In this document: positions 47,390 through 55,025 of the stretch, one piece after another
Position numbering within the stretch: position 1 is the stretch's first letter
How the letters are laid out: each line of letters opens with the position of its first letter
Assembly (NCBI GenBank): GCA_038319435.1
Contig: JBBQDG010000008.1
Location: 11,319 to 75,318 of the forward strand
DNA from: Sphingomonadales bacterium
GTDB lineage: Bacteria > Pseudomonadota > Alphaproteobacteria > Sphingomonadales > Sphingomonadaceae
Direction of reading: 5' to 3'
Length of the DNA: 64,000 nucleotides
Program-made: the position numbers and the translations under genes
The notes under the pieces: model-generated
Told to the model about the DNA's origin: nothing
The model's input: only the letters and a program-made list of their open reading frames with translations
Database searches by the model: none

Positions 47390-47423
47390 AGCGGGGCGCG
47401 CGCCGGAAGGGAAGCGCCCCGCT
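47390..47423. terminator. hairpin between msrB and the PBP1a gene
   Basis: AGCGGGGCGC...GCGCCCCGCT 10-bp inverted repeat; no U tract. Confidence 0.35.
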
Positions 47424-47427
47424 CGCG

Positions 47428-47853
47428 CTACTCGGCGCCGTCTTTAGGAGCGAACGCGAGCGACGCTGAATTGATGCAATAGCGAAGCCCGTCCGGTCCC
47501 GGACCGTCGGGGAAGACGTGGCCAAGATGGCCCTCGCATTTCGCACACCGCACCTCGGTGCGCGCCATGCCGTGGCTGCGGTCTGTGATTTCCTCGACCG
47601 CCTCGTCCGCAACCGGTGCAGTAAAGCTTGGCCAGCCCGATCCGCTGTCGAACTTGGTGTCGCTACCGAACAGCGGCTCACCGCAGGCACCGCAGACATA
47701 ATCGCCCGCCGCCTTGTTATTGAGCAGTTCGCCGCTGAACGGCGCTTCGGTGCCGGACTTGCGCAGGACGCGATAGCGCTCCTCGCCAAGCAGCGCGCGC
47801 CACTCCGCTTCGCTGCGCTCGATCTTGCTGTCCGATTGGTCGACACTCGCCAT
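47428..47853 (-). CDS. msrB: peptide-methionine (R)-S-oxide reductase
   Basis: [40 protein letters not shown]. Confidence 0.97.
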
Positions 47854-47915
47854 GCTGGCCTCCGCTTGCTTTGTTAGTGGTCGCTTAACCCTCTTTCAAC
47901 GCTTGGGCCCTAGCG

Positions 47916-48443
47916 ATGGCCCCCATGTTGGTGCGAACCCTGCTCGCTGCAATGGCGCTGGCGCTGGCCGTGGCGGGACGTTCCGGTCCGGCCGAGGCGC
48001 AGTGCCGGCTGTGCACCACTCCAACCACCGCCCCGGAGACCGACGTTGCCACCCCCGTAGCGCTCCAGGTCGAGGCCAATCTCGACTTCGACCGCATCGT
48101 CCTGTCGGGCAGCGGGGATGGCTCTGCGACGCTCGACCCCGACGGGTCGCGGCGCACGAGCGGCACGATCGTCTCGCTGGGCGGGCGAGCCATGGTCGGC
48201 AGCATCATGGTGCGCGGCGAGCCCGGCCGCACGGTGCTGGTCACCCTGCCCAAGCGAATCTCACTCCACGGTCTGACCGGGACCGATATCGTCATCGACG
48301 GCGTGACCAGCGACTTGCCCGGCGCACCGCGCATCGGCTCTGACGGGACGCTGGCTTTCCGCATCGGCGGCGCGCTTCACGTCTCGGGCGAAGTCGACGG
48401 CGAGTATCGCGGCGATTTCACCGTCGACGTCGACTATCTGTGA
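47916..48443 (+). CDS. DUF4402-like secreted pilin-like protein A (CxxC at mature N-terminus)
   Basis: signal peptide ending AEA, then QCRLC, NLDF, C-terminal GEYRGDFTVDVDYL. Confidence 0.8.
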   Translation: MAPMLVRTLLAAMALALAVAGRSGPAEAQCRLCTTPTTAPETDVATPVALQVEANLDFDRIVLSGSGDGSATLDPDGSRRTSGTIVSLGGRAMVGSIMVRGEPGRTVLVTLPKRISLHGLTGTDIVIDGVTSDLPGAPRIGSDGTLAFRIGGALHVSGEVDGEYRGDFTVDVDYL

Positions 48444-48603
48444 CAAGCCGGCAGAAGAAGCTCCATTCCGGATTAATCCTTAATTGCACGGTAACCCTGC
48501 TGGGGAGGAAAGCGGAAAGCCGACGCGGTTAATGACCTCTCCCACGGATGCCCGGACAATTTCCGGACAGGCGCCACCTTTCGACACCAAGTGGGGAATC
48601 AGG

Positions 48604-49119
48604 ATGCTCAATTCTCGGTATGTGATGCTCGTCGCCGGTGCGGCGATGCTTTCCGCTTCGCCGGCGCTCGCCGGTCCCGGTTCGCCGACCGCTCAGTCCG
48701 CGGTTGCGACAACCTATGCTCAAATCGTCGATCCGCTGACGATCACGAAGAATGTGGACATCAGCTTCGGCACGCTCGTCAAGTCGCCGGCGCTGACCGC
48801 CACCGCGGTGACCGTTACGCTCGACGGCAGCAACACGGTCGCCTGCCCGGCGGCGTTGCTGTGCAGCGGAGTGCCGACTTCGGCCAAGTTTACTGTTACG
48901 GGCACAACCGGCCAAACCGTCTATCTGACAACGGTCGCGTCGTTGATGAACGGCCCGTCAGGTGCAAAGCTGACATTCACTCCGATTGCGCCGACGACAC
49001 TTGTGGCCGCCAGCGGTCCGGGCACCTCGTTCACATTCGGCGGATCGATCCCCGTCGCGTCGGACACGCCCGCGGGTATCTACAACGGCGATGTGACGGT
49101 TACCGCCGACTATAACTGA
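48604..49119 (+). CDS. DUF4402-like secreted pilin-like protein B
   Basis: signal peptide ending ALA, AQIVDPL, DISFG, Cys pair, C-terminal GIYNGDVTVTADYN. Confidence 0.85.
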   Translation: MLNSRYVMLVAGAAMLSASPALAGPGSPTAQSAVATTYAQIVDPLTITKNVDISFGTLVKSPALTATAVTVTLDGSNTVACPAALLCSGVPTSAKFTVTGTTGQTVYLTTVASLMNGPSGAKLTFTPIAPTTLVAASGPGTSFTFGGSIPVASDTPAGIYNGDVTVTADYN

Positions 49120-49144
49120 TCGACCGGAAACCCTGGTTCGGGTT

Positions 49145-49174
49145 GGGGGCTGCCGGAAACGGCGGCCCCTTTTT
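49145..49174 (+). terminator. intrinsic terminator after pilin-like B
   Basis: GGGGCTGCCG-GAAA-CGGCGGCCCC-TTTTTT. Confidence 0.9.
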
Positions 49175-49308
49175 TCATGTCCGATCCGGAGCTTTCCTAA
49201 ACACCGTGGTAACCATCATCGACAGCGAAGCCGCAACGCCTGCTGGTTAATGAGGTGCTGACCACGCCGCATCGTGCCGGTGAGGACCAGACCAGTGGGA
49301 AGTAATTC

Positions 49309-49818
49309 ATGACCAAATTTGCTCGATTGCTGACGGCCGCTGCCGTCGCCACCCTCTTCGCCAGCCCGGCGCTAGCCGTGCCGGTCGGTGCCACCACCGC
49401 CGCCACCGCCAAGGCGCAGATCGTCAAGCCGCTGGTGCTGACCGCGAAGACCAATATGGATTTCGGCACCATCCTGCTCACCAGCCTCGTTGCCGGACCG
49501 ACCTACACCGTCACCCTGACCAGCGGCGGCGCGTTGACTTGCACGAGCGGGCTGACCTGCTCGGCCACCGGCATCCCCGCGACCTTCAACGTGCAGGGCT
49601 CGAATAACCAGCTCGTGAAAATCTACACAGCGGCGAGCAGCTTCACGAACGGTACGACGACGCTTTCGATTACGCCGAGTGCCGCCGGCTCGCTGACGCT
49701 CACGAACTCGGGATCGCCGGGGCTCGATTTCAACGTCGGCGCCTCATTCCCGATCACCAGCGCCACCACTGAAGGTGTCTACACCGGCAACCTCAACGTG
49801 ACGGTCGATTACAACTAA
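49309..49818 (+). CDS. DUF4402-like secreted pilin-like protein C
   Basis: signal peptide ending ALA, AQIVKPL, NMDFG, Cys pair, C-terminal GVYTGNLNVTVDYN. Confidence 0.85.
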   Translation: MTKFARLLTAAAVATLFASPALAVPVGATTAATAKAQIVKPLVLTAKTNMDFGTILLTSLVAGPTYTVTLTSGGALTCTSGLTCSATGIPATFNVQGSNNQLVKIYTAASSFTNGTTTLSITPSAAGSLTLTNSGSPGLDFNVGASFPITSATTEGVYTGNLNVTVDYN

Positions 49819-49845
49819 TCGCTCGCTCAATCGAGTGGACCAGGA

Positions 49846-49874
49846 GGGGTCGCCGGCAACGGCGGCCCTTTTTG
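49846..49874 (+). terminator. intrinsic terminator after pilin-like C
   Basis: GGGGTCGCCG-GCAA-CGGCGGCCCT-TTTTT. Confidence 0.88.
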
Positions 49875-49961
49875 CTGTCCCGGCAATGAGTGCCGCGATG
49901 GTTAGCAGTTAAATAACCATTTTGGTCGAAAAGCATCTCCAGATTGGATGGAGATTTGCTC

Positions 49962-50786
49962 GTGACCCTATTCCCGCGTTTCGCTCGCCTTGCGCTCGCC
50001 GCCCCGCTCGCCGTCGCCGCGCTGGCGACCCCTGCAACCGCCGGGATCGGTGACCTGCTTGTCGCCCCGACCCGCATTGTTCTCAACGGCAGTCGCGGCA
50101 CGCAGATCATTCTCAATAATATCGGCGACGACGTCGCGACCTATCGCGTCAGCCTTGAGCTGCGCCGGATGAACCCCGACGGATCATTGAGCGACGTTGC
50201 CGCGCCAAACGCCGCGGAGAAGGCGGCCGAGGACATGATCCTTTATGCCCCGCGCAAGGTCACGCTGCCGCCCAACCAGCCGCAGACGATCAACATTTCC
50301 GCGCGCGCCCCGGCCGGATTGGCCGACGGCGAATATCGCGTCCACCTGCTGTTTCGCGCCATTCCCAAGCCGCGCCCTGTTACGGCCGCCCAATCAGAGG
50401 CAAAGGGTATCAGCTTCTCGCTGACCCCGGTCTATGGCGTGACCATCCCGGTCATCGTCCGCCTAGGCTCGCTTTCAGCTAAAGCCGGGATCGCCAATGT
50501 CCACATGGCTTCCGAAGGCGGCAAGCCCGCAGTGGCGATGGACCTGACCCGCACCGGCAGCCGCTCGACCTATGGCGAAGTGCGCGTGATCAAGGCCGGG
50601 ATCAAGGACCCGATCGCGATCCAGCGCGGCATCGCGGTCTACACCGAAGTCGGCCAGCGCAGCGTCTCGATCCCGGTCAGCGACAAGCTCGCGTCCGCCG
50701 CCAACGGCCCGGTGACCGTGCAATATCTAGAAACGACAGAGGCCGGCACCCAGGTGATCGCCCAGACCAGCGCGGTGCTGCGCTAG
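49962..50786 (+). CDS. PapD-like periplasmic pilus chaperone
   Basis: signal peptide, LLVAPTRIVL, YAPRKVTLPPNQPQTI, GEYRVHLLF, IPVIVR; GTG start with GGAG SD. Confidence 0.8.
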   Translation: MTLFPRFARLALAAPLAVAALATPATAGIGDLLVAPTRIVLNGSRGTQIILNNIGDDVATYRVSLELRRMNPDGSLSDVAAPNAAEKAAEDMILYAPRKVTLPPNQPQTINISARAPAGLADGEYRVHLLFRAIPKPRPVTAAQSEAKGISFSLTPVYGVTIPVIVRLGSLSAKAGIANVHMASEGGKPAVAMDLTRTGSRSTYGEVRVIKAGIKDPIAIQRGIAVYTEVGQRSVSIPVSDKLASAANGPVTVQYLETTEAGTQVIAQTSAVLR

Positions 50787-50813
50787 GCAGTCAGGGGGTC
50801 GCGGGGGACGCGT

Positions 50814-53513
50814 TTGCGCCTGGCCAAAAGCCTGGGTCGCGGCCTCGTCGCCGCGCTGACACTGCCCGCGCTCGCCGCGGGCAGCGTTGCGACGGGTGCC
50901 GCCTCGGCTCCGGTCGCGCCGGCGTGGAGCGCCGACCCTGACGATCAGTTCGTGCTTGAGGTCAATATCCGCCAGTTGCGCCTCGGCGACGGGGTCCGCG
51001 CCTATGGCACGCCCGAGGGCACGTGCGTCAATTTCGGCGATTTCCTGACGACGCTCGATGTACCGATGCGAATCGACGTCGGTGCCAAGCGCGCGACCGG
51101 CTGGGCGTTCAAGGAAAGCAACAAGATTGCCATCGATCTTGGTACTGGACGGGCCTCTTGGGGCTCTGGCCAGAGCGAGATGATGACGAGCGGCACGGTC
51201 CGCCTGACCCCTGATGGCTGGTGCGTCGAGACCGGCGCGCTGGCGCGCTGGTTCGGAATTGGCGTCAAGCCGTCACTCGCCGGATCGATGCTCATGCTGA
51301 CGTCGGACGCCAAGCTGCCGGTTGAACTGGCAAAGGAGCGCCACGACCGTGCCGCGCGGCTGAGCCACGCCAGTCTGAGCCTTGGCCAATTGCCGCAGGT
51401 CCGCCTGCCCTACCGATTGTGGCGCGCCCCGGCGCTCGATTTTGTTGTTAGCGGCGGCGTGGCCTACAGCGCGAGAACCGGCGCGCGGGTCGATCGCCAC
51501 GCCGCGTTGCTTGCAGCGGGCGAACTCGCCAGCCTGTCCTACGAAGCGCAGGCGACGACCGATGCGCGCGGCCGCCCCGACAGCCTGCGGCTGCGCGCCT
51601 ACAAGTCCGATCCCGACGGCAATCTTCTCGGTCCGCTGCGCGCGACCCATTTCGGGGTCGGCGATGTCGCCGGATTCGACAGCCGGTTGATCGGCGTCGG
51701 ACGGGTCGGGCGCGGGGTCGAGGTGACCAATCGTCCGCTGTTCACGCCAACCGCGTTCGATCGCACCCATCTCGAAGGCGATTTGCCCGCCGGGTGGGAG
51801 GCCGAACTCTATCGCAACGGCGAGTTGCTCGGCTTCGCCCCCGCCACCGGCGACCAGCGCTACCGCTTCGACGATGTTCAACTGCGCTACGGCGCCAACG
51901 AGCTCGAGGTGCGGCTCTACGGCCCGCAGGGGCAACTGCGGTCTCGCCACGAAACGGTCGATGTCGCCAATGCCGCGGCTCCCCCGGGGACGACCTGGTA
52001 CTGGGCCGGGGTCAACCAGCCCGCGCGAGAATTAATCGCTTTGCGAGCGCGACCGCCCGACAATACCAACTTGCCCAAACTCCAGGCGAGCGTCGCGCTG
52101 GAGCATGGGCTCGACAAACGCACTTCCATTGGGCTCGCCGCGACCATGCAGGTGGTCGACGACGAGCGATTGACCTATGTCGAAGGCACCGTGCGCCGCT
52201 CGATCGGCAGCGCGCTGGTTGAAGTGGCGGGGGTCCGCGATAGCCACGGCGGAAAAGCCGCGCGTGCCTCATTGCTCGGCAAGATCGGCCCGCTCGACAT
52301 TTCGGCCGAAGCGCTCGCCGCGAGCAATTTCCGGCTGAACGGGATCCGCGAACGCGCGATTCGGCAAGCGCAACTCTCGCTTGGCGCGCCATTGAAGATC
52401 GGGCGGAGCATCTTTCCGGCCAGCGCGTCGCTGCGCATCATCGATCGGCCCGGCGGCGCGCGTTCGCTTGAGGCGGCGGGGCGATTGTCGGCCAATTTCG
52501 GCCGATTCAACCTCGGCACCGACATTCGATGGCGACGCAACAGCGACCGGAGCGGACTGGTCGCTGCTCGCACCGACGACCTCGAGGCGACGCTGATCGG
52601 ATCGGGCCATATCGGCCGGATACGTTTGCGAGGAAGCAGCACGTTCGACTTGAAACCCTCGGCGCGGCTCAAGCTCGCCGAGCTTTCGGCTTATTGGTCG
52701 GCATCCGAAAAGGCCGATTGGGACGCCGGGCTCGGCTATGACAATGAAGCACGACGGGCGCGCGCGCGGCTGTCCTACATTCGCCGGTTCAACAGCATGG
52801 CGCTGGCGCTGACCGGTGAGGGGGCGAGCGATGGCTCGCTTGCGTTCGGCTTCAACCTGAACTTCTCGCTTGATCCGGCGCGGGGTTTCAAACCTTCCCG
52901 GCTACCGATGGCCAGCGCCGGCCTGATCCGCGCCCACGTTTATCGTGATCTCAACGACAATGGCGCGCGCGATCCGGGCGAGCCCGATGAACCGGGCGCG
53001 CTGATCACCACTGGCACGCGTGTCGCGCTGCAGCCGACCGACAAGCGTGGCACATCGACCGTCGCCGGACTGACGATCTACCAGCCGGTTGCGGTCGGAA
53101 TCGATCAATCGACGCTGAGCGACCCCAACCTTACCCCGCGCAAGGCGCTGCAGGTCGTCACTCCGCGCGCCGGCATCGCCGCCGAGGTCGAGATCGGGCT
53201 GGTCGGATCGGGCAGCATCGAGGGCGTGCTGATCAAGGACGGCGGCGGCGGCTTCGAAGGCGTCGAACTTGAACTGGTGGGGGCCGACGGCAAGCTCGCG
53301 AGCACAGCGCAGAGTGATTTCGACGGCTATTTCCTGTTCGATAAAATCCCATATGGACATTATAATGTGCGCATTGCTCTTTCGTCGGCGAAGGCAATCC
53401 ATGCTGCGATTGATGCAAGTGCGACGGTCAGCGGCGACAAGCCGACCGTGCGGCTGGGAGCCATCCGCGCGGTTCAGTCGCTGGAAGTCGCGTCGAACGG
53501 TGGCTCGAATTAA
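50814..53513 (+). CDS. divergent fimbrial usher-like outer-membrane protein with C-terminal SdrD/carboxypeptidase-like Ig domains
   Basis: 899 aa, signal peptide, plug-like AELYRNG...YRFDDVQLRYGANELEVRLYGPQG, long amphipathic beta region, D.N.NG..D.GE and SDFDGYFLF repeats. Confidence 0.65.
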   Translation: MRLAKSLGRGLVAALTLPALAAGSVATGAASAPVAPAWSADPDDQFVLEVNIRQLRLGDGVRAYGTPEGTCVNFGDFLTTLDVPMRIDVGAKRATGWAFKESNKIAIDLGTGRASWGSGQSEMMTSGTVRLTPDGWCVETGALARWFGIGVKPSLAGSMLMLTSDAKLPVELAKERHDRAARLSHASLSLGQLPQVRLPYRLWRAPALDFVVSGGVAYSARTGARVDRHAALLAAGELASLSYEAQATTDARGRPDSLRLRAYKSDPDGNLLGPLRATHFGVGDVAGFDSRLIGVGRVGRGVEVTNRPLFTPTAFDRTHLEGDLPAGWEAELYRNGELLGFAPATGDQRYRFDDVQLRYGANELEVRLYGPQGQLRSRHETVDVANAAAPPGTTWYWAGVNQPARELIALRARPPDNTNLPKLQASVALEHGLDKRTSIGLAATMQVVDDERLTYVEGTVRRSIGSALVEVAGVRDSHGGKAARASLLGKIGPLDISAEALAASNFRLNGIRERAIRQAQLSLGAPLKIGRSIFPASASLRIIDRPGGARSLEAAGRLSANFGRFNLGTDIRWRRNSDRSGLVAARTDDLEATLIGSGHIGRIRLRGSSTFDLKPSARLKLAELSAYWSASEKADWDAGLGYDNEARRARARLSYIRRFNSMALALTGEGASDGSLAFGFNLNFSLDPARGFKPSRLPMASAGLIRAHVYRDLNDNGARDPGEPDEPGALITTGTRVALQPTDKRGTSTVAGLTIYQPVAVGIDQSTLSDPNLTPRKALQVVTPRAGIAAEVEIGLVGSGSIEGVLIKDGGGGFEGVELELVGADGKLASTAQSDFDGYFLFDKIPYGHYNVRIALSSAKAIHAAIDASATVSGDKPTVRLGAIRAVQSLEVASNGGSN

Positions 53514-53593
53514 CCATAGTCGTCTGAAGCGACTTTCCGGCGCATGCGGATTGCTGCGTGCGGCCGGCCGCCGCTGGGCGTCGGGGGCAAATC

Positions 53594-53679
53594 TGGTGCG
53601 GTCGAGAAGACTCGAACTTCCACGGCCTTTCGGCCACAGCCACCTCAAGGCTGCGCGTCTACCATTCCGCCACGACCGC
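53594..53679 (-). tRNA. tRNA-Leu (GAG)
   Basis: GCGGTCG acceptor stem, D-loop GG, anticodon loop TTGAGGT, long variable arm, TTCGAGT T-loop, encoded CCA. Confidence 0.97.
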
Positions 53680-53842
53680 ACGTGAACAGGCTCAACGATC
53701 GGGAGCCTCTGGCAAGGCGCGGCCCCTAGCAAAGGCTTTCACGGCGCGCAACAGGGGCGGCCGCCAGTGACCCCGCGTCCCGCGCCGGGACAGTGGTAAA
53801 CAGGTCATTTACCTTTATCCCAAATGCTGCGCTGATGGCAGC

Positions 53843-54079
53843 ATGTTCGCGCTTTTGTTCGCCGCCGTCACCGTTAGCGCCGGTCCCGCTGTCGTCCCGC
53901 ACGGCGCGGTTTTCCAGCCGAGTGCGGTGACCGCGAGCGCGCTAGTCACGGTCCGCATTCTCGAAGGTGTGACAATCGAATATCGCGGAGCCAAGCCGGT
54001 CGGCGCAATCGCCAGGCGCGAAACCTCGCTGCTGGTCGACGGCCAGAACGTCGCCGCCACCCTGATCGAATTTCCCTAA
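53843..54079 (+). CDS. small secreted hypothetical protein (78 aa)
   Basis: hydrophobic N-terminus, ASALVTVRIL strand, ends LIEFP; preceded by GGTAAA-N7-TTTACC. Confidence 0.55.
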   Translation: MFALLFAAVTVSAGPAVVPHGAVFQPSAVTASALVTVRILEGVTIEYRGAKPVGAIARRETSLLVDGQNVAATLIEFP

Positions 54080-54082
54080 TTC

Positions 54083-54197
54083 GCCCAGCGCCGCCCGTGC
54101 AGCGCTAACCGCCCGTGCAGCGTTGGCTTGCACAGCGACCGCCCGTGCAGCGTGAACTTGCCCGGCGACCGCCCTCGCAGCGCTAGCTTGCCCAGCG
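54083..54197. repeat. 30-bp degenerate tandem repeat (about 3.7 copies) overlapping the zinc-ribbon gene stop
   Basis: ACCGCCC(GT/TC)GCAGCG-N4-CTTGC-N2-(A/G)GCG units at 54108, 54138 and 54168, plus a partial unit. Confidence 0.9.
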
Positions 54198-55025
54198 CAG
54201 CGTCAGCGAGGTTGCGTTGGCGGGGACGTTGAGTTCGGCGGCGTTGAAGCTCGCACTCGTTCTGGGGGCCAGGCGGGCGGCCGGGGGAGGGATCATCCAG
54301 CTATAGACGAGTTTGCCGCCGCCGTCGCGCAGGTCGGCCTGCAGCGCGGGGACGGGTTCGGCCTCGTCGGTCGGATTGATGACGCGGCCGCTGAGCGAGA
54401 CAAGGTCGTTGCCACTGGCGAGTTTCTGCCGGTTCTGACTGGTGACCATCAGTTTCAGAGGGCTGTCGGCGCTGGCCTCGGCCAAGCCGGCGCGCGCCAT
54501 CCACTCGCGCGGGGCGAGGAAATAGGCGGCAGCGGCGAGCGCGGCGACGATCAGGACGAGCGCGAGGATGATGACCAGTCCCTTGCGCCGCGGCGCGACG
54601 TCATCATCGCCATACGGCGCGTCGTTCCAGCCGCTGTCGTCCGCCACAATCGCGACGGGCTCGGGCGGAAGATCGTCCCGCGGTTGCGCCTCGACCATGG
54701 CAATCGGTTCGGCAACGGCAACCGGTTCAGGGTCAGCGAGTACCTCGCCCGCCTCGGCCTCCGGCTCGACGATCGACGCATCGCCAACCGTCGCCAGGTC
54801 CTCCGCAGACAAGGCGACCGGTTTCGGATCGGACGGAACGGCAACGACGGTTTCGTCCGGCGCTGCCAACTCGGGCTCCACCGGCGCTGGAACAGCCACC
54901 GCCTCTTCACCCGCCTGATGCCAGCTATGCTTGCACGCCGCACAGCGTACCGTGCGGCCGTGCGGCGGGATCGCTCCGTCCTTGACGGTATAGCTCGTCT
55001 GGCAGGCAGGACAGGTCAAAATCAT
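54183..55025 (-). CDS. MJ0042-type zinc-ribbon / DUF3426 protein (ZitP-like polarity factor)
   Basis: MILTCPACQTSY...VRCAACKHSW, acidic Pro linker, one TM segment, C-terminal Ig-like domain; divergent from ftsE. Confidence 0.85.
   Translation of the reverse strand: MILTCPACQTSYTVKDGAIPPHGRTVRCAACKHSWHQAGEEAVAVPAPVEPELAAPDETVVAVPSDPKPVALSAEDLATVGDASIVEPEAEAGEVLADPEPVAVAEPIAMVEAQPRDDLPPEPVAIVADDSGWNDAPYGDDDVAPRRKGLVIILALVLIVAALAAAAYFLAPREWMARAGLAEASADSPLKLMVTSQNRQKLASGNDLVSLSGRVINPTDEAEPVPALQADLRDGGGKLVYSWMIPPPAARLAPRTSASFNAAELNVPANATSLTLRWAS

Follow-up and report, generated by a model that had tools for sequence, protein, structure and literature searches.

Predicted CtrA-type boxes precede every transcription unit of a putative fibre locus in the genome of a small soil sphingomonad (Sphingomonadales bacterium, assembly GCA_038319435.1). 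The locus comprises three DUF4402 pilin-like genes (A, B and C), a periplasmic chaperone gene and an usher-like gene. It lies in a 64,000-nt stretch of contig JBBQDG010000008.1, here called the window (C8:11319-75318 of a 54-contig assembly; genome 2.42 Mb, 65 % G+C, 93 % complete). Judged from the sequence and its conservation, there is a good probability that control by CtrA is the best explanation of these boxes. Most likely, phosphorylated CtrA would bind the consensus GGTT[A/T][G/A]C-N6-[T/G/A][T/A]AACC[A/C]T and activate the fibre locus; we infer both the binding protein and the activation. Four fibre units would be controlled in this way: each of the three pilin genes, with transcription from A possibly running on into B, and the chaperone-usher pair. 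An unlinked gene encoding 78 amino acids (aa) would form a fifth unit.

Six sites in and near the fibre locus

A sequence-only reading of the window had placed six CtrA-like sites upstream of the pilin-like genes, the chaperone gene and the 78-aa gene, and had considered them unlikely to occur by chance. All six sequences stand at the positions given there (Table 1). The TTAA-N7-TTAA(C) dyad is found at sites 1, 2, 3 and 5, with a degenerate first half; site 6 reads TAAA-N7-TTTACC and site 4 is a half-site. The pattern TWAR-N7-DTAACC has four matches in the window (at 47874, 48480, 49198 and 49902), all on the plus strand and each upstream of a gene. Dinucleotide shuffles of the DNA gave 0.04 matches on average, and none of 100 shuffles reached four, in agreement with the earlier claim. 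Genome-wide (2.42 Mb), the degenerate pattern of the sequence-only reading has 13 matches, 8 of which are intergenic, and half of these 8 belong to the fibre locus.

The motif is also enriched over other intergenic DNA. Four of the 48 genomic intergenic matches of at least 12 bits are clustered within ~0.9 kb here (~0.13 expected), and by box density this locus ranks in the top three 6-kb intervals of the genome, as does the Flp/Tad locus; intergenic statistics and box density are approximate, the gene caller being crude (genes were missed, B was over-extended and site 2 was scored as coding). Another box-dense interval, C27:17.5-21.3 kb, was rejected as a lower-GC region with only weak, non-canonical matches.

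Similarity to the boxes of the ctrA promoter

A CtrA orthologue is encoded at C28:23556-24224 (419.5 bits against NF045991, cut-off 350), and an orthologue was found in 39 of 40 relatives carrying the fibre locus. The ctrA promoter of 39 family genomes contains a conserved gGTTtACg..aaaTTAACCTT, ~90-105 nt before the ATG. The 18-nt matrix used to score the sites was derived from these 39 promoters; it was seeded only with the generic TTAA-N7-TTAAC and is independent of the fibre locus. Its top genomic matches are full dyads in the promoters of a Flp pilin gene, an M23 peptidase gene and ctrA. A second matrix was derived from the chaperone boxes of the family, and box 5 is its best match in the genome (29.1 bits). 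The two matrices correlate with r = 0.79 in register, against -0.21 to 0.33 out of register, and the spacer preferences C9, G10 and A13 are common to both. Furthermore, TTAACCAT half-sites were found 20-70 nt before genes which, by their Pfam names, encode a CcrM-type methylase, a TadG-like protein, a methyl-accepting chemotaxis protein (MCP) and a receiver-domain protein. The motif thus stands before established CtrA-regulon genes of the same genome (ctrA, ccrM and the Flp/Tad pilus genes). The TTAA-N7-TTAA consensus is conserved across Alphaproteobacteria, and GTTAACCAT repeats occur in a Sphingomonas phage (PMC9437464). The CtrA-like identity assigned by the sequence-only reading is supported by the CtrA orthologue, the match of the matrix to the ctrA promoter, the retrieval of the Flp and ctrA promoters and conservation in ~120 loci (see below).

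The ctrA promoter itself (C28:23430-23500; 39 family genomes) has the architecture TTTAC-N7-TTAACC, 21 nt, GGTTAAT, ~60 nt before the ATG. An inverted TTAACC...GGTTAA pairing is common to this promoter (N21) and the pilin B/C promoters (N30). Upstream of cpaB there is a tandem pair of Flp pilin genes (C39:9950-10820); the perfect dyad GGTTAA-ATTCTTG-TTAAC in front of them is the best match of the genome to the CtrA matrix.

Conservation in related genomes

Conservation was analyzed in 40 family-level loci (41 in the chaperone counts) and in 80 genus-level loci of Sphingomicrobium/Sphingomonas. Among the 201 family genomes, 73 encode a chaperone homologue, showing that the locus is widespread in sphingomonads. 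With the ctrA-derived matrix, a box of at least 10 bits was found in the chaperone promoter of 36 of 41 family loci, at a control frequency of 7.5e-5 per position. It lies 20-110 nt upstream of the chaperone gene in nearly all loci, usually right behind the terminator of the preceding pilin gene, and follows the consensus aTGGTT[A/T][G/A]Cg..a[T/A].TTAACC[A/C]T; the consensus for genus and family boxes together is GGTT[A/T][G/A]C-N6-TTAACC. In the 80 genus loci, boxes of at least 8 bits precede 58 of 68 A-type pilin genes and 81 of 97 B/C-type (C-type) pilin genes (median distance 93 nt), compared to 13 matches in 343,540 positions of control DNA. Box 6 is kept in all three same-genus genomes examined, 29-31 nt before the ATG, while its flanks have diverged.

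Outside the box no alignment was possible among the promoters of the A-type, B/C-type, chaperone and 78-aa genes. The boxes are kept in ~120 orthologous loci while the flanking DNA diverges, and by this comparison they are phylogenetic footprints. A divergent paralogous cluster within the family also has a 20-bit box directly before its chaperone gene. Homologous clusters of six genomes from other proteobacterial classes contain no positioned box. These clusters (37-50 % G+C) have a chaperone homologue with up to four DUF4402-like genes upstream. From these comparisons the wiring seems to be characteristic of the family (by the names of the relatives, Sphingomonadaceae), as expected of a global, lineage-specific regulon.

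Promoter anatomy and transcription units

Of the 68 A-type promoters of the genus loci, 60 have an in-frame ATG 33-34 nt behind TTAACC. A conserved (c)cTAG or aaTAG sequence stands 19-20 nt behind the box. About 61 genus loci share the consensus TTAACCcTGTTTtA...TAG...cATG, and a Shine-Dalgarno-like 4-mer occurs in only 8 of 61. The fixed distance between box and ATG, the TAG-type -10 and the missing Shine-Dalgarno sequence point to leaderless A-type mRNAs with the box at -51 to -35. The true start of gene A is probably ATG 47925, and not 47916, at the very beginning of a leaderless mRNA. By this numbering the promoter-proximal half of box 1 would lie at ~-40 to -35 and occupy the -35 region. 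The box-to-ATG distance of the 78-aa gene is short, like that of the A-type. Probably, pilin A and the 78-aa gene would both be transcribed from the ATG itself, with the TTAACC half at ~-40 to -35 and a TAG-type -10 19-20 nt further on. Box 1 lies in the divergent spacer between msrB and gene A, which is only 62 nt long (47854-47915), and is 20 nt away from the start codon of msrB. Either the msrB promoter overlaps box 1 or it is located inside gene A.

The B/C-type promoters are built differently. TTAACC-N30-GGTTAA is found in 69 of 78 of them, as part of a block that reads box - N - TTGAGCaAAGCcGtAAGCgg - GGTTAAT - N8 - CACGG and is followed by a ~70-nt leader with a GGGGA Shine-Dalgarno sequence. 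GTAAGC in the genus consensus is as far from the box as TAG is in the A-type. In the proposed mechanism these promoters would keep the same distance from the box to a -10-like element, with GGTTAAT near the predicted transcription start and the ~70-nt leader behind it. Site 4 had been described as a full dyad, GGTTAA-N7-CTGACC. This description did not hold, since the CTGACC half is not conserved and only GGTTAAT is, at N30; in the promoter of gene C it occupies 49245-49251, 30 nt after box 3. The ~60-nt block between box and leader is highly conserved (48497-48560 and 49215-49275) and has no Rfam match; candidate roles are those of a core promoter, a second operator or an element of the 5' leader. 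The ATG in GGTTAATG was rejected as a leaderless start: it shares the reading frame of B, whereas for C it is out of frame and opens only 3 codons, and relatives often have GGTTAATAG or GGTTAATTG at this position. GGTTAAT as the -10 hexamer of a TTGAGC -35 (18-19 nt spacing) is a poor match and is not favoured. In none of the five intergenic regions did a sigma-70 consensus scan find a promoter-like site.

The sequence-only reading had further proposed that each subunit is separately promoted, and the terminators behind B and C, together with the box before each gene or unit, support this. Because the intrinsic terminators after B and C are strong, gene C and the chaperone-usher pair need promoters of their own. 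Terminator analysis of the spacers found no strong intrinsic terminator behind gene A. The usher-like gene is probably co-transcribed with the chaperone gene, from which it is separated by a box-free gap of 27 nt. A TTAACCAT sequence overlaps the usher stop codon (window 53510-53535), with a small hairpin (AGTCG...CGACT) behind it; the S. edaphi locus has both.

Alternative explanations

Four observations weigh against control by CtrA. Sites 1 and 3 are weak with the independent matrix (9.9 and 8.2 bits), and their first half-sites are degenerate (TTAG, TAAA). The palindromic ATGG...CCAT flanks, strong in the chaperone box, are less pronounced in the boxes of ctrA promoters, so that they could be recognised by a partner or by a different protein. 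No box is found in the cluster of one other alphaproteobacterial family (G460), which makes the wiring lineage-specific. Finally, many single-pilin loci from the family's more distant genera lack a good box before the pilin gene and have one before the chaperone gene only.

The boxes might be real operators that are read by another protein, either a SciP-like DUF1153 protein (alone or with CtrA) or a symmetric dimer on ATGGTTA-N9-TAACCAT. This is rather improbable, though the most probable of the alternatives. In its favour are the extended palindromes of the chaperone boxes, whose ATGG/CCAT flanks are conserved, the symmetric variants TTGA...TCAA in a subset of boxes and the presence of a DUF1153 gene in the genome. 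However, the match to the box of the ctrA promoter and to the general TTAA-N7-TTAA consensus (PMC9437464) covers the core, the 7-nt spacer and even the spacer preferences, and no dedicated regulator gene is linked to the fibre locus. A left-half TTGA also pairs with a right-half TAAA, hence there is no strict symmetric covariation; strict TTGA/TCAA covariation was considered as a sign of a different palindrome reader and rejected as inconsistent.

The DUF1153 gene lies at C3:65600-65857, with a 16.7-bit box ~380 nt upstream of it. DUF1153 is presumably the SciP family, for which binding to TTAACCAT-like DNA has been reported. Such a co-regulator could act at the extended ATGG...CCAT flanks and at the GGTTAAT elements.

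It is very unlikely that TTAACC is the -35 element of an alternative sigma factor, for example of the extracytoplasmic function (ECF) type, with TAG/TAAG as its -10 and no activator. The fixed spacing of 19-20 nt between TTAACC and the TAG-type element, the equally fixed distance to the ATG and the lack of sigma-70-type promoters in the spacers fit this idea. A second conserved half-site, GGTTAG, stands exactly 7 nt upstream, however, outside any -35 and forming the dyad typical of CtrA, and the same dyad precedes ctrA and the Flp pilin genes. That the sites resemble each other by chance, or through carry-over from pilin gene duplication, is hardly credible: B and C are indeed paralogues with similar upstream regions, including box and GGTTAAT, but 0.04 matches were expected in shuffles and promoter types that cannot be aligned each keep the box across up to ~120 loci, so that carry-over explains at most the B/C pair and the comparative data effectively refute this explanation.

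The fibre locus and its host

The closest named relatives of the host are Sphingomicrobium metagenome-assembled genomes, Sphingomonas edaphi, S. daechungensis, S. humi and S. alba. Locus and boxes are shared by strains of these four species that can be cultured, S. edaphi DAC4, S. daechungensis JCM 17887, S. humi JCM 16603 and S. alba SE158. The features of the locus are listed in Table 1.

Table 1 Boxes, genes, promoter elements and terminators of the fibre locus (window coordinates; box scores in bits, ctrA-derived 18-nt matrix)
Feature	Position	Strand	Remarks
msrB	47428-47853	-	Gene bordering the locus
Box 1, TTAG-N7-TTAACC	47874-47890	+	62-nt msrB/pilin-A spacer; 9.9 bits
-10-like CCTAGC	47909-47914	+	TAG 20 nt after box 1, 11 nt before ATG 47925
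DUF4402 pilin-like gene A	47925-48443 (longest open reading frame from 47916)	+	PF14352, 1.5e-23
Box 2, TTAA-N7-GTAACC	48480-48496	+	107 nt upstream of gene B ATG; 12.9 bits
GGTTAAT element	48527-48533	+	Follows box 2 at exactly 30 nt; close to the predicted transcription start
DUF4402 pilin-like gene B	48604-49119	+	PF14352, 9.4e-17; ATG 48604 after GGGGAA Shine-Dalgarno sequence
Intrinsic terminator after gene B	49145-49176	+	11-bp stem and T run; -25.2 kcal/mol, z = -3.75
Box 3, TAAA-N7-GTAACC	49198-49214	+	94 nt upstream of gene C ATG; 8.2 bits
Site 4, first described as GGTTAA-N7-CTGACC (49245-49263); conserved core GGTTAAT	49245-49251	+	12.3 bits only as minus-strand reading
DUF4402 pilin-like gene C	49309-49818	+	PF14352, 4.9e-16
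Intrinsic terminator after gene C	49838-49875	+	-28.8 kcal/mol, z = -3.35, then UUUUU
Box 5, extended palindrome ATGGTTAG-CAGTTAA-ATAACCAT containing site 5 (TTAG-N7-ATAACC, 49902-49918)	49898-49920	+	41 nt upstream of chaperone GTG; 15.7 bits
PapD/CsuC-like periplasmic chaperone gene, 274 aa, GTG start	49962-50786	+	Predicted from structure model and Foldseek
Usher-like gene, 899 aa	50814-53513	+	Conserved; follows the chaperone gene in each of the 41 loci
tRNA-Leu(gag)	53594-53679	-	Separates the fibre locus from the 78-aa gene
Box 6, GGTAAA-N7-TTTACC	53795-53813	+	29 nt upstream of 78-aa gene ATG; 12.5 bits
78-aa gene, signal-peptide-like N-terminus	53843-54079	+	No family match

It is reasonable to regard the locus as a chaperone-usher-like fibre system on the basis of the structure model, though sequence searches alone are blind to the chaperone fold. 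Indeed, Pfam and PDB sequence searches with the chaperone gave no significant match (PDB E < 0.05), and neither did a PDB sequence search with pilin C (E < 0.05). The AlphaFold model of the chaperone (mean predicted local distance difference test score, pLDDT, 84.9) has the two immunoglobulin-like (Ig-like) domains of the PapD type, and Foldseek matched it to CsuC, Caf1M, FimC and PapD (E ~1e-8, probability 1.0, TM ~0.5). Pfam matches of the 899-aa usher-like protein are only C-terminal, to Ig-like or prealbumin-like domains. As to the claim that one of the boxes precedes the 78-aa gene, the dyad is present there, but this gene is set apart from the fibre locus by the tRNA-Leu gene.

Gene annotation of the window revealed no regulator gene adjoining the fibre locus. 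An Rfam scan of 47400-54300 gave only the tRNA and one sub-threshold small RNA match, the leaders having no match. A fourth, unlinked DUF4402 gene is found at C44:2464-3003 on the minus strand (PF14352, 3.1e-22), with a weak box-like sequence ~60 nt upstream that scores 19 bits with the chaperone-derived matrix and is outside the top 60 matches listed for the ctrA-derived core.

The sequence-only reading had predicted that the fibre is specific to swarmer cells or to a stage of the cell cycle. Swarmer specificity found no support, as no FHIPEP/FlhA gene is detectable in the 93 %-complete genome. The host is probably non-flagellate, to judge from its gene content, and would lack a flagellar export apparatus; cell-cycle timing of the fibre is a prediction only. 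The MCP gene with its upstream TTAACCAT and the Tad/Flp locus are present despite the lack of a detectable FlhA gene.

Comparison with known systems

Developmental promoters of Caulobacter crescentus with CtrA boxes include those of pilA, fliQ and class II flagellar genes, ccrM and ctrA P2. The boxes described here are like those of C. crescentus in the TTAA-N7-TTAAC dyad (consensus: PMC9437464) and the TTAACCAT half-site variant, and they would resemble them in a predicted overlap with the -35 and predicted control of appendages and ctrA. Unlike in C. crescentus, however, the predicted boxes of the sphingomonad target a DUF4402/chaperone-usher-like fibre instead of Tad pili or flagella, and their first half-site mostly reads TTAG or TTTA and is often embedded in a longer ATGG...CCAT palindrome. 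The CtrA-dependent fla2 promoters of Rhodobacter sphaeroides (PMC6180460) come from the same class and are similar in that CtrA regulates motility, biofilm and appendages and not strictly the cell cycle. In contrast to R. sphaeroides, the present genome is apparently without a flagellar export apparatus. Transcription of the archaic (Csu-type) chaperone-usher pili of Acinetobacter is controlled by BfmR, a response regulator of the OmpR family. Similarly, the chaperone fold found here is closest to CsuC and a winged-helix response regulator is the predicted regulator. The sphingomonad locus differs from Csu in its DUF4402 subunits, its atypical usher-like protein and its separately promoted subunit genes, which replace a single operon.

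Literature searches on DUF4402 clusters returned nothing relevant, and those on CtrA together with chaperone-usher or DUF4402 systems returned no report linking them. The regulon type is already known for CtrA; what is new is the predicted presence of CtrA-type boxes before a DUF4402 chaperone-usher-like fibre.

Significance for the sphingomonads

It may be suggested, tentatively, that in flagellum-less sphingomonads of the Sphingomicrobium type the archaic-type DUF4402 fibre has become a principal CtrA-controlled appendage beside Tad pili, with four separate CtrA promoters, one of them leaderless, setting its subunit stoichiometry and GGTTAAT serving as a second CtrA operator, or a SciP operator, that times or limits expression. 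If control by CtrA is correct, an uncharacterised and widespread surface fibre of sphingomonads would gain a regulatory context, and mutants of the CtrA phosphorelay, or over-activation of CtrA, would provide a practical handle to switch its expression. The fixed leaderless geometry, kept in ~60 natural variants, would make a clean test case for the contact between CtrA and RNA polymerase. The known appendage regulon of CtrA would then extend beyond flagella and Tad pili.

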